A DNA stretch of 32,428 nt from an uncultured Anaerolineales bacterium (GTDB taxonomy: Bacteria > Chloroflexota > Anaerolineae > UBA7937), in the NCBI GenBank assembly GCA_964514645.1, contig CAZERB010000001.1, positions 1 through 32,428 on the forward strand, given 5' to 3'. How positions within the stretch are numbered: the stretch's first letter is position 1; the number at the start of each line of letters is the position of its first letter. The position numbers and the translations under genes were made by a program. Below the pieces are notes generated by a model. The model saw only the letters and a program-made list of their open reading frames with translations, did not search any database and had not been told where the DNA came from. Positions 5,450-18,426 of this stretch are shown here, piece by piece.

Positions 5450-7183
5450 CTAGATATATCCCATATAAGTAAGAACGAAGATAAAGAGACGGAGTATGCC
5501 AGCGGTGAAAGCGAAGACGAAGAAAGCGCCAAAGAGCGACCGACTTCTGGTCCACCTGAGGTAAAAAGCCATCACCCCTAAGCCCAGGGTCGCCAAAAGT
5601 ATAGGGAAGAGCCGACCGGTGAAGATCGGCGCTAGCTGGGGCATAGATATAGCCAAGAAGGGAAGGAGACCTCGTCCACTGGGGGTGATCAACATCATAG
5701 CCACAAGTTGCATAAGCATAGCCACAACCAGGGCCACCCAGGCTCCCAAGGTCGTCAACTCGCCTTCTCCTGTCAAGAGGTAGAAAATCAAAAGCCAAAA
5801 CAGGGGAAGAACAAGCCAGGCTATGAGCACCGGGGTAAAACAGACGACTAAAAGGAGAGCCATTATTAGATCGCCACCTCTATCTACCACATCGGCTAAG
5901 GTGACCTTGTTCAGCACCTCTTTCACCTGCGGCGAGGTGCTGGCGTACAAGACCTGGTATTCTTCAAACCCTGCGGTGTCGATCCAAGCCAGATGGAGAG
6001 CCAGCCCCGGGTCGGCTACGATATGGGGGGTCAAGGAAGCCATTTTTGTGGCGGTGACGATCTGGTACCCTTTCAATTGGCCTTGGGAGAAGACGAGCAT
6101 AGCGATCTGGAGATGTTCTCCCAGTCTAGTGGAAATGTTCATGCTAAGGGCCACCGGCAACTCCGACCTCTGACCATCTACCACCCAAGGCCGGCTCAAA
6201 AAAGTGGAGACCTCTGCTTTCTGAGAGGCCAAGAGATGGTAAGCATACTCCCCTGCATAGGGGTCGTATCGTGGCCTCTCTGTGGGGGGTAGCCGCAACT
6301 CCATCACCACGCTTTCAGAGGGCCTTCCCAGGGGAAAAGTGGCGTAGAAGGTATCGCCGCCCGCCGCCTGTCCTCTCTCTTCTATAGACCAAAAGATGTA
6401 GCCATTCTTAAGATCGAGCCCCAGAACTGGACCGACCATGATCTGTCCTCCTCGGAGGACTACCTCGGCGATCCCTGTAACCTCCCCCAAGACCCTCCTC
6501 TCTGGATCGAAGGTAGCATAGTATATCTGGCGGATGCCATAGGCGGGCTCTTCAAACCAAGAAAGGTGGAAAGTTCCCTCCTGGTCCAATTGCAAAGTGG
6601 GGGCTATCCCTTGAGAGGCGATAAGGGCATTGGGCGAAGCCACCAAACTCTCAGGATCGATAGTCAGGCTATATACGCCAGGGCTCGCATAGGCGGCTTG
6701 AGACCAGAAGAGTTCGATCTGCCCTTGGGCACTAAATCCTGAAGCCACATAACCCACCTCCATCCCCGGCAAGGAGAGGAGAAAAGGGTCGGAGATGATC
6801 TCCCCTGAGGAGTTTAACTGTACGTAGTAGAGGCCCTGACCTTCCTCCTTACTGGCGATCCAAAAGAGGTGGAGCCTCCCCAGGGGGTCTAAGAGGAACC
6901 CCGGCTTCTGAGAGGATCGAGTAGGCAAATCGAGGCTCTTATCCGCTACAACCTGCCCCTTCTCATCTAACTTGGCCCAGCGGAGAAGATGCTCCCCATC
7001 CACCCAGGTCAGATAAACTACACCCTCGCCAGCCTGGATGGCTACCGGGTTGTTGAGGCGGCTTATCCCTACCGGCTGCCCCTTGCTCCAATCGAGGGAG
7101 GCTCGAGGCGTGGTCCGAGGTCCAGCACACCCCCCTAAAACGACCCCCAGGAGAAGCAATAAGGTCAAAACCCTTTCCTTCAT
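5450..7183 (-). CDS. Lipoprotein with an extracytoplasmic beta-propeller-like repeat domain fused to a C-terminal ~6-TM membrane domain; function unknown
   Basis: The ORF is open to 7252, but ATG 7183 is preceded by GGAGAGG and gives MKERVLTLLLLLGVVLGGCAG (signal plus LGGC lipobox). At least six repeats of hxhxW-x8-12-hYY/hY-x-h-D/N-xxG. The last ~170 aa are strongly hydrophobic (about 6 TM). Confidence 0.75.
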   Translation of the reverse strand: MKERVLTLLLLLGVVLGGCAGPRTTPRASLDWSKGQPVGISRLNNPVAIQAGEGVVYLTWVDGEHLLRWAKLDEKGQVVADKSLDLPTRSSQKPGFLLDPLGRLHLFWIASKEEGQGLYYVQLNSSGEIISDPFLLSLPGMEVGYVASGFSAQGQIELFWSQAAYASPGVYSLTIDPESLVASPNALIASQGIAPTLQLDQEGTFHLSWFEEPAYGIRQIYYATFDPERRVLGEVTGIAEVVLRGGQIMVGPVLGLDLKNGYIFWSIEERGQAAGGDTFYATFPLGRPSESVVMELRLPPTERPRYDPYAGEYAYHLLASQKAEVSTFLSRPWVVDGQRSELPVALSMNISTRLGEHLQIAMLVFSQGQLKGYQIVTATKMASLTPHIVADPGLALHLAWIDTAGFEEYQVLYASTSPQVKEVLNKVTLADVVDRGGDLIMALLLVVCFTPVLIAWLVLPLFWLLIFYLLTGEGELTTLGAWVALVVAMLMQLVAMMLITPSGRGLLPFLAISMPQLAPIFTGRLFPILLATLGLGVMAFYLRWTRSRSLFGAFFVFAFTAGILRLFIFVLTYMGYI

Positions 7184-7282
7184 ACCCAAGCCTCTCCAAG
7201 AAACGAGAGGCGGTCCCCATCGCCCGCCTCTCACTTTAAGACCATCGATCAAGGATCCCCAACCGCATCGCCCAAGTCCCGA

Positions 7283-8212
7283 CTACATAGTGCCTCTCAT
7301 CATCGGATCTAAGGCGTCGCGCAGACCATCGCCTAAGAAGTTGAAGGCCAACATTGTCAGGCTGATGGCCAAACCGGGGAAGATGGTGAGGTGAGGGACA
7401 GCCCGCAGCCCCTGCCAACCCTCCTGGACCATCTGCCCCCAACTGGGGAAGGGAGGGGGTACCCCCAGGCCGATAAAACTCAAAACCGCTTCGGTTAAGA
7501 TATAGCCGGGTATACCCAGGGTGAGGGCTACAACAACGGGGCCCAGGCTATTGGGCAGAAGATGTCGGCTGATGATCTCCAACGGCCGAGCACCGATCAT
7601 CCGTGCGGCCTCCACGAAATCCTTCTGCTTGAGAGAGAGAAACTGTCCCCGCACCAAACGGGACATCCCCATCCAGCCCACAGCCCCTATGCCGATGAAG
7701 ATATTGGTCAATCCAGGCCCCAAGACCACCATGATGAGGATGACGAAGAGGAGGGTGGGGAAGGCGTACATCACGTCCACAAACCGCATCATGTAGTTAT
7801 CGATGCGCCCCCCCAAATAGCCAGCCATCGAGCCATAGGTTAACCCGATGACCAAAGCGGTCAAAGCACCCACTACGCCCACCGTAAGGGAGACCCGTCC
7901 GCCCCAGATGACGCGGCTGAAGACATCCCGCCCCAACTTATCGGTGCCCATAATATGGTCCGGCCACTTGGGACCTATACGGTTATTGGCGTAATCGGTC
8001 TCCTTGTAACTGTAAGGAGCCACCCAAGGGGCGAAGATGGCCCCAAAAGCGACCAGGAGGATGAAAAGCCCCCCGGCCACCGCCATCTTGTTTCTCAGCA
8101 ACCGGTGCCAAGCGTCTCGCCAGAGGCTCACCGAGGGGCGAGCCAACTCCATCTCCACCGGTATGGCCGGTGGTGGCCCTCCCACCTCTTGACCTCTCTC
8201 CCCTACCGTCAT
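7283..8212 (-). CDS. ABC transporter permease, OppC/DppC-type
   Basis: BPD_transp_1-type membrane protein. EAA-loop FVEAARMIGARPLEIISRHLLPNSLGPV. N-terminal SLWRDAWHRLLRNKMAV is typical of OppC/DppC. SD GGAAGGTGGGGAG lies before ATG 8212. Confidence 0.9.
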   Translation of the reverse strand: MTVGERGQEVGGPPPAIPVEMELARPSVSLWRDAWHRLLRNKMAVAGGLFILLVAFGAIFAPWVAPYSYKETDYANNRIGPKWPDHIMGTDKLGRDVFSRVIWGGRVSLTVGVVGALTALVIGLTYGSMAGYLGGRIDNYMMRFVDVMYAFPTLLFVILIMVVLGPGLTNIFIGIGAVGWMGMSRLVRGQFLSLKQKDFVEAARMIGARPLEIISRHLLPNSLGPVVVALTLGIPGYILTEAVLSFIGLGVPPPFPSWGQMVQEGWQGLRAVPHLTIFPGLAISLTMLAFNFLGDGLRDALDPMMRGTM

Positions 8213-8224
8213 CTCCCCACCTTC

Positions 8225-9187
8225 CTACTCATATCGGATACGCGGATCTATGAAAGCGTAACTGATATCCACCACCAGGTTGAAGAAAATCAAGGCCACC
8301 GCGTAAACCATGATGGTACCCATGATGAGGAGATAGTCCCTATCGGTGATGCTAGTGACGAAGAATTTCCCTATCCCCGGGATGGAGAAGACCCATTCCA
8401 CCAAGAAGGAACCAGTTAGCCAAGCCGCGGTAAGGGGCCCCAGGATAGTGGTCACGGGGATAAGGGAGTTCTTTAAGGCGTGGCCCACTATCACCGCCCG
8501 CTCCCTCAAACCCTTGGCCCGAGCGGTGCGGATATAGTCCTGACGGATGGTCTCCAACATGCTGGCCCGAGTGAGACGAGCGATGAAAGCCGTCCCCCCC
8601 GTCCCCAGGGTAATGGCCGGCATGATCACCTGCAAGGGCGTCTCCCCCCAGCCGAAGGCTGGGAGCCAGTGTAAAGTCAAGGTGAAGAGCACGATAAGCA
8701 TCGCCCCCAAGACGAAGTTAGGGATAGAAACTCCCAGCATGGAGAAAAACATGGCTATGTAATCTATTATGGTGTTCTGCTTCAGGGCGGAGATGATGCC
8801 CAAAGGTATCCCTATGCCTATGGCGATGGCTAAAGAGACGAGCCCCACCTGAGCAGATACCATTATGGGCGCATGGATAGGGTCCTTCCAGAAATCCCGG
8901 CCGAACATGATCTGGTTGATGGTCCTCCCCGGCTTACGGTAGGAGGGCCCGAAATCGAAATGGAAGATTATCCTCTTCATATAGTTTATATACTGCTTCC
9001 AGGCCGGCTGGTCAAGCCCATACTTGGCCTCCATGTTGGCTCGGATCTCCGCGGGTATAGGCCTCCCCGAGGCCCCGGCAGTGAAAGGCCCCCCGGGCAC
9101 CAGTTGCATAGCGGTGAAAGTCACTACGCTGACCATCAAGAGCACCGGAATAGCCCACAAACCCCGATACACTATGAACCTCAACAT
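8225..9187 (-). CDS. ABC transporter permease, OppB/DppB-type
   Basis: MLRFIVYRGLWAIPVLL start. EAA-loop YIRTARAKGLRERAVIVGHALKNSLIPV. Six predicted TM segments. Confidence 0.9.
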   Translation of the reverse strand: MLRFIVYRGLWAIPVLLMVSVVTFTAMQLVPGGPFTAGASGRPIPAEIRANMEAKYGLDQPAWKQYINYMKRIIFHFDFGPSYRKPGRTINQIMFGRDFWKDPIHAPIMVSAQVGLVSLAIAIGIGIPLGIISALKQNTIIDYIAMFFSMLGVSIPNFVLGAMLIVLFTLTLHWLPAFGWGETPLQVIMPAITLGTGGTAFIARLTRASMLETIRQDYIRTARAKGLRERAVIVGHALKNSLIPVTTILGPLTAAWLTGSFLVEWVFSIPGIGKFFVTSITDRDYLLIMGTIMVYAVALIFFNLVVDISYAFIDPRIRYE

Positions 9188-9264
9188 ATTCTGAACCCCT
9201 GCTCCAAACTAGAGGTGATGAGAGACCAAAATAGAGGATAAGGGATAATATCTATGATACCAGG

Positions 9265-9295
9265 CCATGTAGCCCTCATCATGAGGGCTACATGG
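9265..9295 (-). promoter_or_regulatory. Intercistronic stem-loop between the binding-protein and permease genes (15-bp perfect inverted repeat around one central nt)
   Basis: CCATGTAGCCCTCAT-C-ATGAGGGCTACATGG read directly. It begins 9 nt after the binding-protein stop and has no U-tract after it. Confidence 0.6.
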
Positions 9296-9304
9296 CTATA
9301 CTAC

Positions 9305-11023
9305 CTACAGGTTGTTGCACTCATCCAGGATGCTCAGGTAGACGCCCCACTCCATGATGACCAGTTTGACGCCGATACCCAGGTTCTCCTCCCACATGGC
9401 CTGCATACCTTCGAGGACATCCTCGTTGCCTCGGTTGAACCAGGTCTCGATGACGATCTCAGCGGGGTCGGCGATGCCGGCCTCATCCATGTAGGCCTGG
9501 AGTTCTGCCTTGGCCGCGTCAACATCGAACTCATAGCCCACCTCCCCGCAGCCCTGGTAACCCGGAATGGCTGGCGGGACTACCCCACAGGCCACCTCAC
9601 GCCAAGGCATGTTCAGCACGTTGTCCAAGATAGAGCGCTTGTCCACAGCCATCGCTAGTGCCTTGCGGAAGTGGAGGTTGTCGGTATGCTCTGCCTTGGT
9701 GTTGAGCCCCACATACCAGGTGCCCGGCCGAGGAGTCACCACGAACTCCTTGCTCAGCACCGGGTCCTCGAGGATGCGAGGGATCTCCTCGTTGGGGAAC
9801 CAGTCAGTGGCGTCTATCTCGTTGTTCTCGTAGGCGGCTAGACAGGTGGTACGCTCGTAGATGATGGGGTACTCCACCCGCTCGATAGTCACCTTGTCAG
9901 CATCGTGGTAGGTGGGGTTCTTCTCGATGGTCAGGTGGTCCTCATGAGCCCACGCGGTGAGGACATAGGGCCCGTTGCTCACGAAGTTGCCCGCCTCGGT
10001 CCAGTCGTCGCCGAACTCCTCGATCACATCCAGGCGCACCGGATAGGTGGTGGAGAAGGCCAGGATGGAGTCGAAGAAGGCCGCTGGGTCGTGCAAGGTG
10101 ATCTCCAAGGTGAGGTCATCGAGAGCCCTCACACCCACGGTGGTGGGGTCATCGGTAACGCCGGTGGCGAAATCCTCCGCCCCAGCGACAGGATACATGT
10201 TGTAAGCGTACTCGGCCGCCGTCTCCGGCTTCAGCAAGCGGATTATCCCGTCCACAAAATGCTGAGCGGTCACCGGCTCACCATCCGACCAAACGCCGTC
10301 ATCCCGCAGATGGATGGTGTAGACCAAGCCGTCGTCGGAGACCTCATAACTCTCCGCCGCTGCCGGCTCGACGCTACCGTCGCCCCTATAGCGGTAGAGC
10401 CCTTCGACCAACTGGTTGAGTATCATGTGCGAAGTGGTATCGGTGGCCAGGTTGATGTCCAAGGTGGGTGGCTCGGTGCCTAGAGCGTACTTCATGCTCG
10501 TCTTGGCAGGATCATCGAAAGACCAGAGCATGAAGTGAGGAGACCCGAAGGGAGGCCACTCCTGGTTGATGCCGCTCTTCACCATGGCGATGCGGTCGTA
10601 GTGGTAGACCGGCACCACCATGACAACGTCCTCCGCCATGATCTTCTCGGCCTGCTGCCAGATGGCGGCCCGAGCCTCGGGATCTGTCTCCACCAGCGCC
10701 TGGTCCACCAGGTCGAGGAAGGTGTCATCCGACCAGAAGGTGTACTGGAACGGGGATTTGGGGCTGAAGACCTCGTTGATGATGTTGTTGGCATCAGCGT
10801 AGTCCATCACCCAACCCATGCGGTAGGCCTGGTAGGTGCACTTAGCCTCGAACTCCGTGATCTCTGGCGCGGTAGTGACTATCACCGTCTCCACCACCGG
10901 CACCTCCACCGTCTCCACGATCCTCTCCGGAGTCGGTGTCGCTGCCGGCGCACACGAGGCCACCCCTAACGCCAAGAGGGCCATAAGCCCCACCACGCCT
11001 GCCCAACGCAGTTTGCTAGACAT
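9305..11023 (-). CDS. ABC substrate-binding lipoprotein, family 5 (OppA/DppA/AgpA type), apparently circularly permuted
   Basis: Signal plus lipobox LALGVASC, then a P/T/V/E linker. Family-5 hallmarks are present but in non-canonical order: GWVMDYADANN...DPEARAAIWQQAEKIMAEDVVMVVPVY comes first; ALGTEPPTLDINLATDTTSHMILNQLVEGLYRY...VYTIHLRDDGVWSDGEPVTA follows; the protein ends at MEWGVYLSILDECNNL. Confidence 0.9.
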   Translation of the reverse strand: MSSKLRWAGVVGLMALLALGVASCAPAATPTPERIVETVEVPVVETVIVTTAPEITEFEAKCTYQAYRMGWVMDYADANNIINEVFSPKSPFQYTFWSDDTFLDLVDQALVETDPEARAAIWQQAEKIMAEDVVMVVPVYHYDRIAMVKSGINQEWPPFGSPHFMLWSFDDPAKTSMKYALGTEPPTLDINLATDTTSHMILNQLVEGLYRYRGDGSVEPAAAESYEVSDDGLVYTIHLRDDGVWSDGEPVTAQHFVDGIIRLLKPETAAEYAYNMYPVAGAEDFATGVTDDPTTVGVRALDDLTLEITLHDPAAFFDSILAFSTTYPVRLDVIEEFGDDWTEAGNFVSNGPYVLTAWAHEDHLTIEKNPTYHDADKVTIERVEYPIIYERTTCLAAYENNEIDATDWFPNEEIPRILEDPVLSKEFVVTPRPGTWYVGLNTKAEHTDNLHFRKALAMAVDKRSILDNVLNMPWREVACGVVPPAIPGYQGCGEVGYEFDVDAAKAELQAYMDEAGIADPAEIVIETWFNRGNEDVLEGMQAMWEENLGIGVKLVIMEWGVYLSILDECNNL

Positions 11024-11184: not shown

Positions 11185-11213
11185 ATTTTATTACACACTA
11201 TATCTCTTGTCAA
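11185..11213 (-). promoter_or_regulatory. Sigma-70-type promoter for the binding-protein/permease genes
   Basis: Minus strand TTGACA (11213-11208), 17-nt spacer, TAAAAT (11190-11185). It lies 5 nt downstream of the upstream ATPase stop and leaves a ~150-nt leader. Confidence 0.55.
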
Positions 11214-11217
11214 GCCT

Positions 11218-12198
11218 CTAGACGCGCCAACAAGCCACCCAGTGCTCCCCCCCTACATCTTTGAACTCCGGCTCCTTCTCCTTGCAGATCTCCATCACCA
11301 CCGGGCAACGGGTTGAGAAGTTGCAGCCCACGGGGGGGTTGGCGGGGCTGGGCACATCGCCGGTAAGGATTAGCCGCTGCCTCTTCTCCTCCACCAGGGG
11401 ATCGGGGATGGGAACCGCAGAAAGGAGAGCCTGGGTGTAGGGGTGGAGGGGGTTCCGGTAAAGTTCGTCTCTGCCGGTGAGCTCCATGATCTTCCCCAGG
11501 TACATCACCGCTACTCGGTCGCTGATATGCCGCACCACACTCAGATCATGGCTGATGAAAAGATAGGTGAGGTGAAACTCCCCTTGAAGTTCCTCCAAGA
11601 GGTTAATAATCTGAGCCCGGATAGATACATCCAAGGCGGAGATCGGCTCATCGCAGACTATGAAGTCCGGATTAACAGCCAAGGCTCTAGCCACGCCAAT
11701 CCTCTGTCTCTGCCCACCGCTGAACTCGTGAGGGTAACGGTTGACGAAATAGGGGTTCATTTTCACCACGCGGAGGAGTTCCTGGACCCTCTCTTTCCGC
11801 TCCTTTCTGCCCGCTAACTTATGCACCTCTAAGGGCTCGCCAATGATACCTCCCACCGTCATACGAGGGTTCAGGGAAGCGTAAGGGTCCTGGAAGATCA
11901 TCTGCATCCTTCGGCGCATACGCCGCAACTCCTCCCCCTTCATCCTGGTGAGATCTTTCCCCTCAAAGAGGACCTCCCCCGCTGTGGGTCGGTAGAGTTG
12001 TAAGATCGTTCGGCCTACGGTCGTCTTCCCACAACCGCTCTCCCCCACCAGGCCTAATGTCTCTCCCCGGCGGATAAAGAAACTGATCCCATCAACAGCC
12101 TTTATATCCCCCGCATGTCGCTGAACAATGATGCCCTGTGTGATGGGGAACCACATCTTCAAATCCTTGACCTCGATGAGGATCTCGTCTTTTCCCAC
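11218..12198 (-). CDS. ABC transporter ATP-binding protein, OppF/DppF-type
   Basis: Walker [10 protein letters not shown], signature [15 protein letters not shown], Walker [13 protein letters not shown], and a C-terminal oligopeptide-ABC extension ([17 protein letters not shown]). The start is uncertain. GTG 12198 gives [17 protein letters not shown] and a typical ~326-aa length. The frame stays open to TTG 12318, and GTG 12285 has an AAGGAGGTG SD. Confidence 0.85.
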
Positions 12199-12220
12199 CG
12201 AATCCTGTCCCTTCCCTGCG

Positions 12221-12256
12221 GGATCCCGAGGGACGGGATCCTGTCCCTCGGGATCC
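12221..12256 (-). promoter_or_regulatory. GC-rich 14-bp perfect stem-loop between (or at the 5' edge of) the two ATPase genes
   Basis: GGATCCCGAGGGAC-GGGATCCT-GTCCCTCGGGATCC read directly. Three GGATCC hexamers occur within 36 nt. Confidence 0.55.
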
Positions 12257-12278
12257 TGTAAGGATAAGGATGAGGAGA

Positions 12279-13268
12279 CTACCACTCTACACCTCCTTTT
12301 GTCACATCTACCCAGCAAGCGATCTCATGGCCTAGAACTATCTCCCTGAGGGAGGGGCGTTCCTCCTGGCAGTGATCGAGCCGATACGAGCAACGGGCAT
12401 AGAAGGGACAACCGGGCGGCAAGGCTATGAGATCGGGAGGCAGGCCCTCAATGGTATCTAGTCTCTCCTCCCGCACCTTATCGACCCGGGGAACGGAGCC
12501 CAAAAGAGCGGTGGTATAAGGGTGTCTAGGGTCTCCATATAACTCCTTCACCCCCGCCGACTCGACGAAGAAGCCCGCGTACATCACCTTCACACTCTGT
12601 GCTATGCCGGCGATGATCCCTAGATCATGAGTGATCCAGATGACCGCCATCCCGAACTCATTCTTCAGGCGCTTCACCAGATCGATAAATTGAGCCTGGA
12701 TAGTAACATCCAAAGCGGTGGTCGGCTCATCGGCGATGAGGATAGCGGGGTTGCAAGAGAGAGCCATGGCGATCATCACCCGTTGTCGCATCCCTCCGCT
12801 AAACTGATGGGGGTAATCATCGATGCGATCCTCCGCCTCGGGGATCCCCACCGTATCCAACAGTTCGATGCTTCGCTCCCGCGCCTCCTCCTTGGTCATC
12901 CCCAAATGGAGCATCAACGCTTCGCTCACTTGCTGATTGATAGTCAAAACCGGGTTGAGGGAGGTCATAGGATCCTGAAAGATCATGGCTATCTTATTGC
13001 CCCTGACGCGACGAATCTCGTCCTCACCGATCTTCAAGAGATCCTTCCCATCGAAGAGCACCTCGCCGCCTGCGATCTTCCCCGGAGGCTGGGGAATGAG
13101 GCGCATGATGGAGAGCACCGATACGCTCTTGCCACAGCCGCTCTCCCCCACGATACCCAGCGTCTCTCCCTCCTTCAAAACATAGGAAATCCCGTTTACA
13201 GCGTTAACCACCCCGTCTTGGGTGAAGAACTGGGTCCTTAGATCCTTTACTTCCAGCAAGGCAGCCAC
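12279..13268 (-). CDS. ABC transporter ATP-binding protein, OppD/DppD-type
   Basis: Walker A GESGCGKS, signature [15 protein letters not shown], Walker [13 protein letters not shown], and a C-terminal [11 protein letters not shown] motif. GTG start is preceded by GAGGAGGGTG. Confidence 0.9.
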
Positions 13269-13420: not shown

Positions 13421-13789
13421 TCACCGAATGGTGGGAGTTAGTGCCCACCAAAAATTGAGCGTCGCCTCCCGGTAAGAATATAGAGGCCAGGACGCACCAT
13501 AGATGGAGGCCATCACAGAGGCTGGCGTGGACTGTTCCCCGGCCCAAAGCCGTGCTTCATCCAAGCGAAAGCGCAAGAAGAGAACCGCCTGAACAGAGGC
13601 GAGGGCCTCCCCTAGCCACACTCTGGCTTTTCTTCTCCAAGGCAAAGGCCTAACTTCTCCAGAAGAAACCCCCGGGGCAAGTTTGGCCTCTATAGCCTCC
13701 CAAACGCGAGGGGGAGGATCCTTATCAGGTACAAACTTGCCTAGAGCCCAACTTAGCAAGAGATCGAACTCATCGCCTTCGTAACCCAT
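13421..13789 (-). CDS. Small protein downstream of the ECF sigma gene; possible non-canonical anti-sigma factor
   Basis: Starts 6-18 nt after the sigma-factor stop (ATG 13789 with GGTGAGGG SD; GTG 13801 also possible). The N-terminus DEFDLLLSWALGKFVP...PPRVWEAIEAKL resembles anti-sigma N-terminal helices. No HxxxCxxC zinc motif and no clear TM segment. Confidence 0.5.
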   Translation of the reverse strand: MGYEGDEFDLLLSWALGKFVPDKDPPPRVWEAIEAKLAPGVSSGEVRPLPWRRKARVWLGEALASVQAVLFLRFRLDEARLWAGEQSTPASVMASIYGASWPLYSYREATLNFWWALTPTIR

Positions 13790-13807
13790 CAAAACCCTCA
13801 CACCGAT

Positions 13808-14386
13808 CTACAACGAAGATAGATCATAGGCTTCCCTGGGCACTGCCTTTTCCTCAGCCAGTTTCCCTTTAAGGATCTTCCGAGCATGGTGGAGTCGAGA
13901 CTTCACCGTCCCCACGGGGCATTCCAGGATGTAGGCTATCTCCGTCAGACTAAAGCCCTGGAGATAGAAGAGCATCACCACCAGGCGGTGATGTATGTTT
14001 AGAGAATTAATCGCCTCGTGCAGCCTCCGATGCAACTCCTTCCTCTCATAAGCATGCTCTGGCGAAAGTTGGGGGGCCGCCACCAGCCGATCTATCATCT
14101 CCTCCACAGAGACAAACCAAGGACGCCGCTTCACCACCCAGTTGTAGCTCAGGTTCACCACTATGCGGTGCAACCAAGGCCCCAAAGGGGCCGAACAATC
14201 GACCCGAGAAAGAGAACGATAGGCTTTAAGGAAACAATCCTGCAACATCTCCTCGGCAGCGCCTTGGTCATCGGTTATAGCCAGGGCGGTGCGGAAAAGC
14301 CTCTTCTTGTATCTGTCGTAAAGGGCTACAACCGCTTCCGAATCCCCTTCTCGGATTCTAGAAACAAGTTCGGCGTCCCTGTTCAT
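13808..14386 (-). CDS. ECF-type RNA polymerase sigma-70 family factor
   Basis: Region 2 (AEEMLQDCFLKAYRSL, WLHRIVVNLSYNW) and region 4 HTH (LQGFSLTEIAYILECPVGTVKSRLHHARKIL). Length 192 aa. Confidence 0.9.
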   Translation of the reverse strand: MNRDAELVSRIREGDSEAVVALYDRYKKRLFRTALAITDDQGAAEEMLQDCFLKAYRSLSRVDCSAPLGPWLHRIVVNLSYNWVVKRRPWFVSVEEMIDRLVAAPQLSPEHAYERKELHRRLHEAINSLNIHHRLVVMLFYLQGFSLTEIAYILECPVGTVKSRLHHARKILKGKLAEEKAVPREAYDLSSL

Positions 14387-14460
14387 CCCTCACCCGCTTT
14401 GGACGCTTCCCTCTCCACATATACACAATATGGAGAGAATAAAGGTTCATTTTTAACATT

Positions 14461-15933
14461 TTAAGAGGAAAGGCCACCGTTGTCAAATCTGCCTTTCCAC
14501 CTCAGGTTGGGCCTGCGGGCGGCGGTTACCTCATCGAGGTGGCTGAGGGGCGTCTTATGAGGTGCCGAAAGCACGTTATCTGGCTCCTCCCTCGCCTCCC
14601 GAGCGATCTCCTTCATGGCCGCTAGAAAGCCCTCCAACGTCTCAAGACTCTCTGTCTCCGTGGGCTCGATCATGAGGGCTTCCTCCACGATCAAGGGGAA
14701 ATAGATAGTTGGGGGGTGGAAGCCAAAATCGATGAGTCGCTTAGCGATATCTAGAGTATGGACGCCGATTTCCTTCTGCCATTTGCCGGAGAATACACAT
14801 TCGTGGAGACAAGGTCTATCGTAGGGCAGATAATAGTAGCCCTTCAGTTGGCTCAGAAGGTAATTGGCGTTGAGCACCGCGTGTTCACTTACCTCCCGCA
14901 AGCCATCACCACCCAACGATCGGATATAGGCGTAGGCCTTCACCATCACCCCAAAGTTACCATAGAAGGAACCCACCTTCCCGATGGATAAAGGACGGTC
15001 ATAATCCAGGTAGTATCTCGTTCCCTCGCTCGTCTCTGTTCGGGCCACCAGGGGGAGGGGCAGGAAGGGAGCCAGATCCTCACTCACCGCCGTGGCCCCG
15101 GCCCCTGGGCCTCCCCCACCATGCGGCGTGCCGAAGGTCTTATGCAGGTTGTAATGGAGGATATCCATCCCCAGTTCTCCTGGCTTGGCGATGCCTAAGA
15201 GGGCGTTCATATTGGCCCCATCGCAGTAGATGAGGGCTCCCAGGCCATGGATGATCTCCGCCACCTCCAAGATCCGCTCCTCGAAGAGGCCCAAGGTGTT
15301 GGGGTTGGTGAGCATCAAAGCCGCCACCGACTCATCGGCTCTCTCTCGTAAGATATCGGCATCTATATTCCCTCGCCCATCGGAGGGGATAGTCATCACC
15401 TGGTAGCCACACATAGCCGCCGTAGCCGGATTGGTGCCGTGGGCCGAGTCTGGGACCAAGACCACCTTCCGCCCTCCATCATGGCGGTTTTGGTGGTAGG
15501 CCCGCACCATAAGCATCCCCGTCAACTCCCCATGGGCCCCCGCCGCCGGTTGGAGGCTTACTGCCGGCAGCCCCGCTATCTCCGCTAGATACCCTTGCAA
15601 CTCATACATCAATTGCAAAGCCCCTTGCACTAACCCCTCATCCTGATAGGGATGGATATGGGCAAATCCAGGTAGGCGGGCCATCTCCTCGTTGACCTTG
15701 GGGTTATATTTCATGGTGCAAGAGCCCAGGGGGTAGAAGCCCGTGTCTACTGAGAAGTTGAGGTGGGAGAGACGGGTGAAATGTCTAATCAAATCCCTCT
15801 CACTCACCTCGGGAAGAGAAAGGTCATCCCGAACCCGACCTTCCGGTAGCGATACTTGGGGGACATCGCACGCCGGCAAAGAAACCCCGGTTCTTCCGGG
15901 CGAACTGAGTTCGAAGAGCAGAGGCTCATCCAT
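14461..15933 (-). CDS. gcvPB: Glycine dehydrogenase (decarboxylating) subunit 2 (P-protein C-terminal subunit)
   Basis: MDEPLLFELSSPGRTGVSLP start, GSCTMKYNP, and the PLP-Lys region NLHKTFGTPHGGGGPG. Confidence 0.95.
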   Translation of the reverse strand: MDEPLLFELSSPGRTGVSLPACDVPQVSLPEGRVRDDLSLPEVSERDLIRHFTRLSHLNFSVDTGFYPLGSCTMKYNPKVNEEMARLPGFAHIHPYQDEGLVQGALQLMYELQGYLAEIAGLPAVSLQPAAGAHGELTGMLMVRAYHQNRHDGGRKVVLVPDSAHGTNPATAAMCGYQVMTIPSDGRGNIDADILRERADESVAALMLTNPNTLGLFEERILEVAEIIHGLGALIYCDGANMNALLGIAKPGELGMDILHYNLHKTFGTPHGGGGPGAGATAVSEDLAPFLPLPLVARTETSEGTRYYLDYDRPLSIGKVGSFYGNFGVMVKAYAYIRSLGGDGLREVSEHAVLNANYLLSQLKGYYYLPYDRPCLHECVFSGKWQKEIGVHTLDIAKRLIDFGFHPPTIYFPLIVEEALMIEPTETESLETLEGFLAAMKEIAREAREEPDNVLSAPHKTPLSHLDEVTAARRPNLRWKGRFDNGGLSS

Positions 15934-15934
15934 A

Positions 15935-17092
15935 CTACAACCCTCTTAGCACCTTCTGAGCGGAAACCAACCCCGCACCCAACTCAAACCTATAGCCGCA
16001 AGACAAAAGCGCCCCTTCGATGGCTCCTACCGTAGCCAATATGTGGCTACCGTTGACCCCACCCATATGTCCCACTCTGAAATAACGTTCCTTGATTTGA
16101 GGGTGCAGGCCACCAGCCACGATAACGCCCCGACCCCCTATTTCTCCTAGAAGTTCCTCGCCTACCCCCTCCGGGTAGTAGATAGCGCTCATGGTGTGGG
16201 CTGCCACCTCTAAAGCGGGCACCTGCTTCAACCCCAAAGCGGTCATGGCCGCCTTGAAGGCCTCGCTTATGAGCCTATGGCGTCGAAATCGGGCCTCCAT
16301 CCCTTCTTTTAGGATCTCATCCAGGCTCTCCCCAAGGGCGTATATGAGGTTTACTGGCGGGGTACCGAAATAACCCACTTTCCGGGCTTCATACGCCTCC
16401 ATGACGGGGAGCCAATTGGCGAGATCGGCATAATAGTTGGCCACAGGGGTGCGGCGCTTCCGGAAAAGGTCTAAGGCCCGGGGAGTAACCATCAGGATAG
16501 CCAAGCCCGGTGGGACGCCCAAAGCCTTCTGAGAGGCGGTGAGACAGATATCGATCCCCCACTTTTCCTGGCGGAACTCCTGGCCCCCAACGGCGCAGAC
16601 GCCATCAACCACGCTCAAGGCACCATAGCGGTGGGCCAGACTTCCCAGAGAGGCCACATCAACCAGCACCCCGGTGGAGGTATCGACATGAGTAGCCAGG
16701 AGCAACTTATATTTTGCGCTCGTAAGAGCCCTCTCCACCTCTTCCAAAGAGGGAACATCTCCCAGTTTGGCTCCCACCTGGGTCACCCGTGCGCCGTACC
16801 GCTCACAGATGGAGGCGAAGCGATGGCTAAAGTAGCCGGTATCGACTAGTAATACCCAATCCTCAGGCTCGATGAGGTTAGCCGCCGCCATCTCCATAGC
16901 CAGGGTCCCCGAGCCAGCCACCACGAAGGGCTGCCCTTCTTCGGTCAGGAAAACCTCCCTGAGCCTCTCCAAAGAGTGGCCGAAAACCTCGATGAAGTCG
17001 GGCGAGATATGGCTTGGGGTCCTGATAGCCATAGCCTGGAGCACCGCTGGCGCGAACTCCACAGGGCCGGGGATCATCAAGAGTTCGTTCAT
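15935..17092 (-). CDS. Class-V aminotransferase, alanine-glyoxylate / serine-pyruvate (AGXT/SgaA-like)
   Basis: MNELLMIPGPVEFAPAVLQAM, SGTLAMEMAAANL and the PLP-lysine motif LTASQKALGVPPG. The true start ATG 17092 overlaps the gcvPA stop (ATGA). The ORF-track extension to 17230 would overlap gcvPA and is rejected. Confidence 0.85.
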   Translation of the reverse strand: MNELLMIPGPVEFAPAVLQAMAIRTPSHISPDFIEVFGHSLERLREVFLTEEGQPFVVAGSGTLAMEMAAANLIEPEDWVLLVDTGYFSHRFASICERYGARVTQVGAKLGDVPSLEEVERALTSAKYKLLLATHVDTSTGVLVDVASLGSLAHRYGALSVVDGVCAVGGQEFRQEKWGIDICLTASQKALGVPPGLAILMVTPRALDLFRKRRTPVANYYADLANWLPVMEAYEARKVGYFGTPPVNLIYALGESLDEILKEGMEARFRRHRLISEAFKAAMTALGLKQVPALEVAAHTMSAIYYPEGVGEELLGEIGGRGVIVAGGLHPQIKERYFRVGHMGGVNGSHILATVGAIEGALLSCGYRFELGAGLVSAQKVLRGL

Positions 17093-18426
17093 CTTATCTC
17101 TCCCAGTACCTCGACTAAAGCGTCGATCTCCTCCTTGGGGTTCATCTCCGTGACGCAAAAGAGCAACCCATCGGCCAATTCCGGGTAATCGCGCCCCAAG
17201 TCGTAGCCACCGACGATACCCCTCTCCCATAATCTACCATTCACCTGCCGTGGGGAAAGAGGTGTCTTCACCACGAACTCCTTAAAAAAGTCGCCGAAGG
17301 GGAGTGCGAACCCAGGAAGGCCCTCTATTTGACGAGCCGCGTAATGGGCCTTATGGAAGGAGAGTTCCGCCACCTGGCGCAGCCCCTGTTTCCCCATGGC
17401 CGCCAGATAGACCGTGGCCGCTAGAGCAACCAGGGCCTCATTAGAGCAGATATTAGAAGTAGCCTTCTCCCGGCGGATATGCTGCTCCCGGGCTTGGAGG
17501 GTGAGGACAAACCCCCGGCGCCCCTGGCTATCAGTAGTCATCCCCACCAAACGTCCGGGAAGTTGGCGCATATATTCCTGGCGGCAAGCCAAGAAGCCAA
17601 GATAGGGCCCTCCGAAACTCAAAGGGTTCCCTAAGGATTGGCCTTCTCCCACTACTAGATCGGCTCCTTCCTCCCCGGGAGGGCGAAAGAGCCCCAGAGC
17701 GATGGGGTCCACGCAAACCACGAGGAGAGCGCCAACCCTACGGGCTAATTCGCTGGCCGAAGACAGATTCTCCAGGCAACCGAAGAAGTTGGGATGCTGG
17801 ACGATGAGACAAGCGGAAGCGGAGGATAGGCTCTCCCTTGCAGAGGCCAGGTCCACCCGGCCATGGCGGTCGTACCCCACCTCCCTTATGGGCAGCCCCA
17901 GGCCTTGAGTATAGGTTCGAACCACCTGGCGGTAGGCTGGATGGACATTTCGGGCTACAACTAACTCCTCGCGGCGGGTGATACGTGCGGCCATGAGGGC
18001 TGCCTCCGCCAGGGCTGAAGCCCCATCGTAGAGGGAGGCGTTAGTCACGTCCATGCCCGTTAGGTCACAGATCATACTCTGATACTCGTAGATGGCGGTC
18101 AAGGTCCCTTGGCTAGCCTCCGGTTGATATGGGGTATAGGCGGTATAGAACTCCCCCCGCCGTAGAACATGATCCACCACCGCAGGGATGAAATGACGGT
18201 AAGCCCCAGCACCCAAGAAGCAAGGGTGGTGGTCTAGATCGGCGTTCTCTTCTGCCAACCCTTGGAGGAGTCGCACCACCTCCATCTCCGAGAGACCAGG
18301 CGGGAGATGAAGAGAGGGGTAGCGACTTTCTTCGGGTACAACTTCAAAGAGCCTATCTGTAGAATCGACGCCTATGGCCTCGAGCATCCTTTGGCGATCG
18401 GCCTCGGTATGGGGAACGTAGCCCAT
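17089..18426 (-). CDS. gcvPA: Glycine dehydrogenase (decarboxylating) subunit 1 (P-protein N-terminal subunit)
   Basis: MGYVPHTEADRQRMLEAIGV, FLGAGAYRHFIPAVVDH and EFYTAYTPYQPEASQGTL. Confidence 0.95.
   Translation of the reverse strand: MGYVPHTEADRQRMLEAIGVDSTDRLFEVVPEESRYPSLHLPPGLSEMEVVRLLQGLAEENADLDHHPCFLGAGAYRHFIPAVVDHVLRRGEFYTAYTPYQPEASQGTLTAIYEYQSMICDLTGMDVTNASLYDGASALAEAALMAARITRREELVVARNVHPAYRQVVRTYTQGLGLPIREVGYDRHGRVDLASARESLSSASACLIVQHPNFFGCLENLSSASELARRVGALLVVCVDPIALGLFRPPGEEGADLVVGEGQSLGNPLSFGGPYLGFLACRQEYMRQLPGRLVGMTTDSQGRRGFVLTLQAREQHIRREKATSNICSNEALVALAATVYLAAMGKQGLRQVAELSFHKAHYAARQIEGLPGFALPFGDFFKEFVVKTPLSPRQVNGRLWERGIVGGYDLGRDYPELADGLLFCVTEMNPKEEIDALVEVLGEIR

Follow-up and report, generated by a model that had tools for sequence, protein, structure and literature searches.

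Has the chain of a large peptide receptor been opened at one point and closed at another during bacterial evolution, or has a faulty assembly only made it look that way? This question is raised by a gene on contig CAZERB010000001.1 (GCA_964514645.1) of an uncultured Anaerolineales bacterium, of which we analysed a stretch of 32,428 nt, called the window in the following. The gene encodes a family-5 (OppA-type) substrate-binding protein (SBP) with a lipoprotein signal, and it lies between the ATPase and the permease genes of an opp importer. Our results show that the protein is a circular permutant and that the permutation is real and conserved; we have hardly any doubt on this point. The locus as a whole is very probably best explained by a functional natural circular permutant, the cluster C SBP of the importer that the flanking oppDF and oppBC genes would encode.

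The gene (9305–11023, minus strand) is a single uninterrupted open reading frame (ORF) with its own signal peptide, its translation agrees with the residues given in the original prediction, and a scan of the whole 32-kb window showed no other SBP5 ORF. In a profile search with PF00496 (SBP_bac_5) the window protein scores 232.7 bits, which is above the gathering score (cutoff 32.4), and its residues 218–563 match positions 2–331 of the 368 positions in the profile. Matches to NCBIfam are all below threshold, including the OppA equivalog rule (NF011684 / PRK15104; 242.1 bits against a cutoff of 947). All matches in Pfam, NCBIfam, and the PDB are cluster C peptide or nickel binders.

Full-length comparators are needed to determine the order of the segments, because PF00496 covers only the middle of the protein. 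We therefore compared the window protein to PDB sequences with phmmer. The OppA of Bacillus subtilis (8are) matches it with an overall E-value of 3.6e-74, in two separate stretches: residues 15–414 of the OppA chain align with residues 170–566 of the query (independent E-value 3.4e-65), and residues 418–497 align with residues 63–143 (independent E-value 9e-06). The same is seen for the OppA of Escherichia coli, where residues 20–402 correspond to 182–564 of the query and residues 407–494 correspond to 62–151 (1.2e-04). In the canonical chain the two stretches abut at a single point (OppA ~403–407/415–417); in the window protein they come in swapped order. In a pair of circular permutants, each protein begins with a part that is homologous to the end of its partner (PMC3320104). 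Since the swapped stretches abut at one point, the window protein is a circular permutant in exactly this sense. Its segments follow each other as signal peptide and lipobox, linker, C-terminal module, N-terminal module, and middle, whereas the canonical order is N-terminal module, middle, C-terminal module.

The same conclusion is reached with a close relative. If the window protein is re-ordered (residues 171–572 followed by 60–170), it is colinear from end to end with P0116, a protein of canonical order, at 62% identity, and its C-terminal module alone matches the C-terminus of P0116 with an E-value of 2e-36. No chain in the PDB matches the whole permuted fold sequentially, neither with phmmer nor with Foldseek. 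The original prediction had proposed this very order of modules and had expected two non-colinear Pfam matches. The order is borne out by the OppA matches and by P0116. Pfam returns a single match, because PF00496 models the middle of the protein and not its C-terminal segment; the expected non-colinearity appears once full-length chains are used.

Conservation of the swapped order

If the order were peculiar to one contig, then we would not expect to find it elsewhere. We searched a collection of 5.8 billion sequences for homologues and typed the 120 best clusters with the individual modules of the query as search sequences. Of these, 119 have the permuted order; their identity to the query is 53–96%, and the assemblies behind them are from JGI, ENA, NCBI, and Logan. 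P0116 is the only one of the 120 top matches in canonical order. The window protein's own 90% cluster contains nine members from all four sources, among them MCJ7667248.1 from an Anaerolineae metagenome-assembled genome (MAG). In total there are 134 distinct permuted sequences with the same breakpoint. A survey of one representative genome per GTDB species, restricted to the best 80 loci, places permuted genes in at least 26 GTDB species genomes, all of them Anaerolineae, Thermoflexia, or unclassified Chloroflexota MAGs. The check for orthologues of the same order in related genomes that the original prediction had called for thus turned out in its favour.

The ratio of nonsynonymous to synonymous substitution rates (dN/dS) of the window gene against four homologues is 0.26–0.33 overall. 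By part, it is 0.36–0.49 for the relocated module, 0.25–0.49 for the junction (residues 155–195), and 0.24–0.31 for the remainder. Both modules and the junction are hence under purifying selection. The source annotations of relatives read "oligopeptide transport system substrate-binding protein", "ABC transporter substrate-binding protein", or "hypothetical protein". One locus (L049) looked like a variant of the window's order (type A) with an internal deletion of about 105 aa; we rejected it, as the gap is a masked stretch of 100 Ns.

One could argue that the order is an artefact, in which a misjoined contig or two tandem SBP genes collapsed into one were read in a false C-N-M order. Related operons do carry SBP5 paralogues in tandem (e.g., L053 and L054), and such repeats could in principle mislead an assembler. 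However, breakpoint, junction motif, and termini are the same in the 134 sequences, which come from four assembly sources and from at least 26 GTDB species genomes, and a sequence divergence of 44–96% rules out one systematic error made across assemblies. The ORF is also uninterrupted, carries its own signal peptide, and has a dN/dS of about 0.3. An artefact therefore has next to no probability, and the misjoin that the original prediction had named as its own alternative can be discarded, all the more since the nine members of the 90% cluster come from four sources. Alternatively, the gene could be a decaying remnant, the C-terminal fragment of one SBP copy fused to a cut-down second copy, with transport left to another SBP elsewhere. 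The rest of the genome may indeed encode other SBPs, and the peptide-receptor role of the window protein is a predicted one. It is nevertheless very hard to reconcile a remnant with purifying selection on both modules and the junction, or with ligand residues and terminal cysteines that hardly vary, if at all, in a clade of deep divergence. The predicted structure is a confident and complete fold, the protein lacks nothing and duplicates nothing, and it is the sole SBP of an otherwise intact opp operon, in the window as well as in most related loci. We consider decay very improbable, if slightly less so than an artefact. Together, the breakpoint shared by independent assemblies and the dN/dS values practically exclude both a chimera and a remnant, which leaves the conserved permutation.

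The opened loop, the predicted fold, and the ligand site

Where has the chain been opened? The cut lies inside a short and variable surface loop of domain III, flanked by two cysteines, which connects the helix ...EWxxYLxxLDxC to the ligand-binding strand C-x7-GWxxDY, and it leaves one cysteine on each new end. Across this point P0116 reads ...EWATYLSVLDEC-NNTPENLAS-CEFNGYRLGWVMDY..., whereas the window protein ends in ...EWGVYLSILDECNNL(stop) and its fold begins with ...EAKC-TYQAYRMGWVMDY.... Both cysteines are present in all 33 canonical Chloroflexota relatives, where the loop between them comprises 6–16 residues of variable sequence (C-x6-16-C). Both are absent from all 10 outgroup sequences (Deltaproteobacteria/Myxococcales and L062), in which the loop is shorter. 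Among permuted proteins, 128 of 129 have kept the two cysteines, and in 126 of the 129 the spacing from the cysteine to GW is eight residues, as in the canonical relatives. Permuted proteins usually stop two or three residues past the C-side cysteine.

It is likely that the new termini are stapled by a disulfide between Cys62 and Cys569. The original prediction had placed these two residues correctly and had suggested the staple, an idea that the covariation of the pair across the family strongly supports. Three points weigh against it: we infer the bond from covariation only, one permuted family member (P0044) lacks the C-side cysteine, and many Anaerolineae are anaerobes, in which extracellular disulfides are less certain. 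If the bond does form, then its ancestral role would have been to close a permissive loop, and it would now hold both new termini in place of the lost backbone link. A second conserved pair, C479 and C493 (ACGVVPPAIPGYQGCG), is found in the consensus of the permuted family and in that of the canonical relatives and is absent from P0116. This pair is probably another extracytoplasmic disulfide.

At the other end of the rearrangement, canonical proteins end in ...HW-x-L-P(stop), whereas the permuted family runs on through W-x-[LM]-P-E-G-[QE]-T-T-L-R into the first strand. In the window protein the join reads ...WSFD-DPAKTS-MKYALG... and falls within nt 10490–10520, where it had been predicted. 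The old C- and N-termini, which both belong to domain I, would be linked by only about 4–6 residues. P0116 and the family alignments agree with the proposal that a single surface loop holds both new termini and that a short linker joins the old ones.

The N-terminus of the window protein has the features of a lipoprotein. The lipobox pattern is matched by V-A-S-C (…LALGVAS-C24), as read from the sequence and without a dedicated lipoprotein predictor, and Cys24 is at least 90% conserved in an alignment of 96 family members. The AlphaFold2 (AF2) model has a helix at residues 4–22 followed by disorder. This disordered tether, about 37 residues long in the window protein, varies in both length and sequence across the family.

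The AF2 model, which was computed with the 96-sequence alignment, has a mean predicted local distance difference test score (pLDDT) of 89.9 and a predicted template modelling (pTM) score of 0.83. Disorder is confined to residues 1–60, with an ordered chain from residue 61 onwards, and the junction region (residues 161–180) reaches a pLDDT of 94–97. We compared the model to PDB structures with Foldseek, which aligns sequentially only, and used as a control the AF2 model of the canonical sister P0116 (pLDDT 80.6). OppA, MppA, DppE, and other cluster C structures match the permuted model with a Foldseek probability of 1.00 and E-values down to 3e-33, over 411–424 columns and with target-normalised template modelling (TM) scores of 0.55–0.68. 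The control aligns to the same entries over 519–545 columns with TM scores of 0.75–0.90. With 8azb, for example, P0116 aligns over 528 columns (0.90), and the permuted model over 414 (0.68). The deficit of about 110 columns is the size of the relocated module of 111 residues. When the permuted model is re-ordered, its three-state secondary structure agrees with that of the P0116 model at 492 of 511 aligned positions (96.3%), compared to a mean of 35% and a maximum of 43% for circularly shifted controls. The models suggest that the OppA-like three-domain fold is unchanged by the permutation.

What would such a protein bind? In OppA structures, Arg413 binds the carboxylate of the peptide. In an alignment to E. 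coli OppA, Arg413 corresponds to R68 and Asp419 to D74 of the window protein, and both are invariant among the 96 family sequences. They lie 6 and 12 residues past Cys62, on the first strand that follows the new N-terminus. Asp419 of Salmonella enterica OppA forms a hydrogen bond with the amine at the N-terminus of its peptide ligand (PMC5736914). The peptide-binding site would hence be unchanged, and captured peptides would have a free N-terminus. We are fairly confident that the window protein works as the peptide receptor of its operon: a lipid-anchored receptor for oligopeptides or murein peptides that would feed the adjacent OppBC(DF) importer as usual. What would have changed is the attachment, since lipid anchor and tether would now lead into the domain III strand that carries the peptide-anchoring Arg and Asp, and not into domain I.

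Origin and apparent recurrence of the permutation

To place the permuted proteins among their relatives we re-ordered them and built a neighbour-joining tree from 177 non-identical cores (493 columns, 100 bootstraps), rooted on deltaproteobacterial sequences. A single split (bootstrap 76%) holds all 134 permuted sequences together on one side, and the clade they form is nested inside canonical Chloroflexota proteins. Its immediate sister is P0116 (72%), followed by a canonical Anaerolineae clade of 15 members (73%). The closest relatives of P0116 are permuted proteins (62–67% identity), whereas its full-length canonical relatives are 51–57% identical. The P0116 locus also has the gene order of the window: gcvT/H/P, a gene for an extracytoplasmic function (ECF) sigma factor, a small putative anti-sigma gene, oppD, oppF, the SBP gene, oppB, oppC, an ORF of about 590 aa, and, further along, a melibiase gene. 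The oppD- and oppF-like genes are syntenic in loci of both topologies, and identity to the window's permeases is 50–94% in permuted loci and 55–79% in canonical loci. A common operon and permeases that are about equally similar in both topologies argue for a change that happened once, in place, and without a visible change in its partners. The rearrangement would have arisen once in an ancestor within the Anaerolineae, inside the operon, and would since have been kept by purifying selection in many species.

Our favoured route, which we hold with moderate confidence, is duplication, fusion, and truncation: a tandem duplication of the gene would have been followed by in-frame fusion of the copies and then by loss of the redundant parts. 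Under this model one expects to find fused doubles as well as half-truncated forms (PMC3320104), and an exhaustive search of the wider family among 1.84 billion representatives yields both. There are tandem-fused doubles of the order N-M-C-N-M-C with 1,037–1,238 aa (P0130, 1238 aa; P0137, 1192 aa; P0151, 1037 aa), two of them with lipoboxes. There are also partial or half-truncated doubles, N-M-C-N-M forms among them (P0152, P0157, P0166, P0190, and P0215). Related operons often contain tandem SBP paralogues, from which such fusions could be made.

Several observations speak against a simple history of this kind. Bootstrap values support a single origin only moderately. The tandem doubles are only 28–34% identical to the query and so are not its direct ancestors, and the wider-family search found no intermediate near the node that joins P0116 and the type-A clade. 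The doubles show that the duplication route has been used in family 5; they do not show the ancestry of the permuted clade. In comparisons with canonical relatives, the C-terminal module is also relatively more diverged than the N-terminal and middle modules (a ratio of 1.1–1.4, compared to 0.94–1.11 within groups), and in module-wise distances (residues 62–170 versus 177–572) it has no clear closest relative among canonical sequences. This excess could reflect faster evolution after relocation or a different paralogue as the source.

Could the gene instead have been split and its halves re-fused in the opposite order? Several proteins of about 390–400 aa consist of the N-terminal and middle modules only, as would a half left over when the gene was split; two of these, P0127 and P0147, end in a type-A-like C-terminus. 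Yet P0127 starts inside the junction motif (MQWQLPDGRDTL...), as one would expect of a gene call truncated at a contig edge, and none of the 81 loci has a separate gene for signal peptide plus C-terminal module. We have therefore set aside the proteins with N-terminal and middle modules only, which look like truncated gene calls. The family does contain the intermediates that duplication would leave, namely full and half-truncated doubles. Fission and re-fusion thus seems improbable to us, and we continue to prefer duplication, fusion, and truncation.

The window's breakpoint is not the only one in the family. In a Chloroflexi MAG, locus L046 (JACPPX010000028.1, 5842–7626, plus strand), which is syntenic with the window, encodes an SBP (P0124) of the order middle, C, N. 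It is cut at about query residues 288/291, between FNTGE and TDDPSTVG, and its cysteine-bracketed loop is intact. P0124 has its own lipobox, a Pro-rich tether, and a linker of 15 aa between the old termini, and it appears to represent a second, independent permutation of the SBP of the same operon. Its breakpoint is shared by P0161 and P0192 (37–41% identity), which makes three representatives at 50% identity, and P0192 is found on five contigs. Other single-length SBP5 lipoproteins have breakpoints at about query residues 88–97 (P0214, 590 aa), 441–446 (P0206, 540 aa), and 485–500 (P0242, 542 aa, whose cluster includes P0283, on 16 contigs). All five breakpoints lie in predicted loops of the AF2 model. 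Circular permutation seems to be recurrent in family 5.

Permuted domains also occur fused to kinases. P0073 (868 aa) and P0119 (890 aa) consist of a Ser/Thr kinase domain, one transmembrane (TM) helix, a linker of about 50 aa, and a type-A permuted SBP5 domain that retains both terminal cysteines. Judging from this architecture, a receptor kinase has taken up the permuted fold as its extracellular sensor. In addition, Chloroflexota encode giant ORFs of 1,300 to more than 3,900 aa in which a canonical SBP5 domain is embedded that is a close relative of the permuted clade (loci L040, L052, L071, L042, L043, L055, and L068; P0121 with 2077 aa and 59% identity, P0139, P0145, and others). We rejected the idea that the giant ORFs are artefacts of N runs, as they contain neither Ns nor stops.

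Did selection favour a new position of the anchor? The permutation may have been adaptive if moving the lipid anchor or a TM helix from domain I to domain III, near the cleft, altered the approach to OppBC or allowed new fusions, for instance to sensor kinases. All permuted forms found either have a signal peptide with a lipobox-like cysteine or follow a TM helix, type-A domains sit behind a kinase and a single TM helix in P0073 and P0119, and the family has at least five different breakpoints. The same idea has been raised for tethered SBPs of cluster B (PMC4990184). On the other hand, tethers are long and disordered (35–100 aa) in canonical as well as permuted proteins, so that the point of attachment should matter little, and permeases equally similar to the window's in both topologies give no sign of co-adaptation. 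We therefore consider adaptive relocation a doubtful explanation. A wider version, in which cluster C SBPs are a hotspot of permutation and tether shifts were selected, and not neutral, for reaching a permease or for kinase signalling, is a little more doubtful still. If it were true, the terminal disulfide of type-A proteins could make the integrity of the receptor dependent on redox conditions. Near-neutral fixation is the simpler reading, and long tethers and unchanged permeases favour it.

Operon context and comparison with known systems

The features of the locus are listed in Table 1. The candidate promoter lies in the 194-nt spacer between oppF and the SBP gene, which suggests that the SBP gene may own a promoter; such matches are not more frequent here than in shuffled sequences. 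None of 200 shuffles folds as well as the hairpin just behind the SBP gene. It lacks a T-run, and we did not call it a terminator. It may be an intercistronic stabiliser or an attenuator that raises expression of the SBP relative to the permeases.

Table 1. Features of the locus in window coordinates, with the basis of each assignment.
Feature	Position	Strand	Basis or remark
Circularly permuted family-5 (OppA-type) SBP lipoprotein gene	9305..11023	(-)	572 aa ORF; stop codon 9305-9307
Signal peptide and lipobox, residues 1-24, MSSKLRWAGVVGLMALLALGVAS-C24	10952..11023	(-)	read from sequence; hydrophobic residues 5-23
Flexible tether, residues 25-61, Pro/Thr/Val/Glu-rich	10841..10951	(-)	pLDDT <50 for residues 22-60
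Relocated C-terminal module, residues 62-170 (OppA ~407-517; P0116 454-567)	10514..10840	(-)	phmmer, alignments
Join of old C- and N-termini, residues 171-176 (DPAKTS)	10496..10513	(-)	re-ordered alignment to P0116
N-terminal and middle modules, residues 177-572 (OppA ~15-414)	9308..10495	(-)	Pfam, phmmer, Foldseek
Cys62, N-side cysteine of opened loop	10838..10840	(-)	invariant in family alignment
Cys569, C-side cysteine of opened loop, 3 residues before stop	9317..9319	(-)	at least 90% conserved in family alignment
Strand YRMGWVMDY with R68 and D74 (OppA Arg413 and Asp419)	10802..10822	(-)	E. coli OppA alignment
oppD-like ATPase gene, upstream of SBP	12279-13268	(-)	ABC_tran and oligo_HPY
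oppF-like ATPase gene, upstream of SBP	11218-12318	(-)	ABC_tran and oligo_HPY
oppB-like permease gene, downstream of SBP	8225-9187	(-)	BPD_transp_1, BPD_transp_1_N/OppC_N domains in oppB-oppC pair
oppC-like permease gene, downstream of SBP	7283-8212	(-)	BPD_transp_1, BPD_transp_1_N/OppC_N domains in oppB-oppC pair
Sigma-70-like promoter match TTGACA-17-TAAAAT, 11/12	11185..11213	(-)	consensus only; 1 site vs 0.8 expected
Perfect 15-bp hairpin, SBP-oppB spacer, just 3' of SBP stop	9264..9296	(-)	-35.7 kcal/mol, z-score -4.4
600-aa ORF downstream of oppC	5450-7252	(-)	lipobox-like N-terminus …VVLGG-C
ECF sigma factor, small putative anti-sigma ORF, glycine-cleavage genes (gcvP subunits)	13421-18426	(-)	directly upstream of opp operon

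The 600-aa ORF has an extracytoplasmic part of about 430 aa followed by four or five C-terminal TM helices, and it has no match in Pfam, NCBIfam, or the PDB. It is kept at the same position in loci of both SBP topologies, at 29–36% identity and at 87% in the closest MAG. The putative anti-sigma ORF (126 aa) has a weak NCBIfam match. The neighbourhood of ECF sigma, anti-sigma, and glycine-cleavage genes is also found in L081, the locus of the canonical sister, and in L046. In the closest sampled relative of the window (L001 and L061, MAG JBHIDN01), the SBP is 79% identical and the flanking genes 81–95% (oppB 93%, oppC 94%, oppD 95%). In this pair the receptor appears to evolve faster than its transporter.

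Circular permutation is a known evolutionary process with a precedent among SBPs, and in this respect our case is a neat and unusually well documented one. Canonical and permuted orthologues occupy the same operon and the cut site can be explained, which makes the family a rare natural experiment in the topology of a large receptor, one that has lasted through a long stretch of evolution. It opens questions about how a disulfide may license a break in the backbone, about the position of the tether in lipid-anchored ABC receptors, and about permutation by duplication in a large protein. There are also practical consequences. Annotation pipelines label such permutants as ordinary "oligopeptide-binding proteins" or as "hypothetical", Pfam covers only 60% of the permuted fold, and sequential structure searches under-score permutants. 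For engineers who want to build peptide biosensors from the OppA scaffold, in permuted or split form, the natural breakpoints mark permissive sites.

How does the window protein compare to known systems? It shares clear homology and the same predicted three-domain elements with OppA, MppA, and DppE (PF00496; 8are, 3tcf, 4toz, 8azb). Like OppA, it keeps the equivalents of Arg413 and Asp419, and its gene is part of an oppDF-SBP-oppBC operon. Unlike these proteins, it has the C-N-M order, a tether on domain III beside the ligand strand, and a cysteine at each terminus. The canonical Anaerolineae orthologues (P0116/L081; L023–L036, L041, L056, L064) are closer: at 51–62% identity to the query, they have the same place in the operon and share its neighbours, the lipoprotein signal, the long tether, and the two loop-flanking cysteines. 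They differ in that the loop is closed and the order canonical, and their termini correspond to the internal junction of the permuted protein.

OpuAC and ProX of cluster F have been described as having a swapped sequence order. A natural permutation that defines a family of SBPs is known for TpMglB-2 of Treponema pallidum and its relatives ("Cluster Bc"), which are circularly permuted glucose-binding lipoproteins; most are tethered, and the authors speculated about a role in anchoring (PMC4990184). TpMglB-2 keeps ligand binding and the bilobed fold. Unlike the window protein, it is a cluster B type I sugar binder of about 350–400 aa, without sequence homology to our protein and with another breakpoint, and neither a disulfide-bracketed cut site nor a canonical orthologue in the same operon has been reported for it (PMC4990184). 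Matches of the window protein in the PDB, Pfam, and NCBIfam include no homology to MglB-type cluster B proteins. The relation to "Cluster Bc" is therefore one of analogy and not of membership, and by the same analogy the family could be named "Cluster Cc". In a full-text search, which covers few subscription journals, we found no published permuted cluster C SBP, only the cluster B case and engineered sensors based on circularly permuted GFP (cpGFP); the PDB comparisons gave no solved one. The original prediction knew of no permuted cluster C protein either, and on this it stands; permutation of SBPs as such had already been documented with TpMglB-2.

The classical cases of permutation by duplication are saposin/swaposin and the DNA methyltransferases (PMC3320104). 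As in these, family 5 contains the canonical form, the tandem-fused double, the partly truncated double, and the permuted single protein. Unlike in the classical series, the doubles are not close relatives of the permuted clade. And unlike the small domains and enzymes of the classical cases, the window protein is an extracytoplasmic protein of about 510 residues and three domains, in which the permutation moves the membrane anchor.

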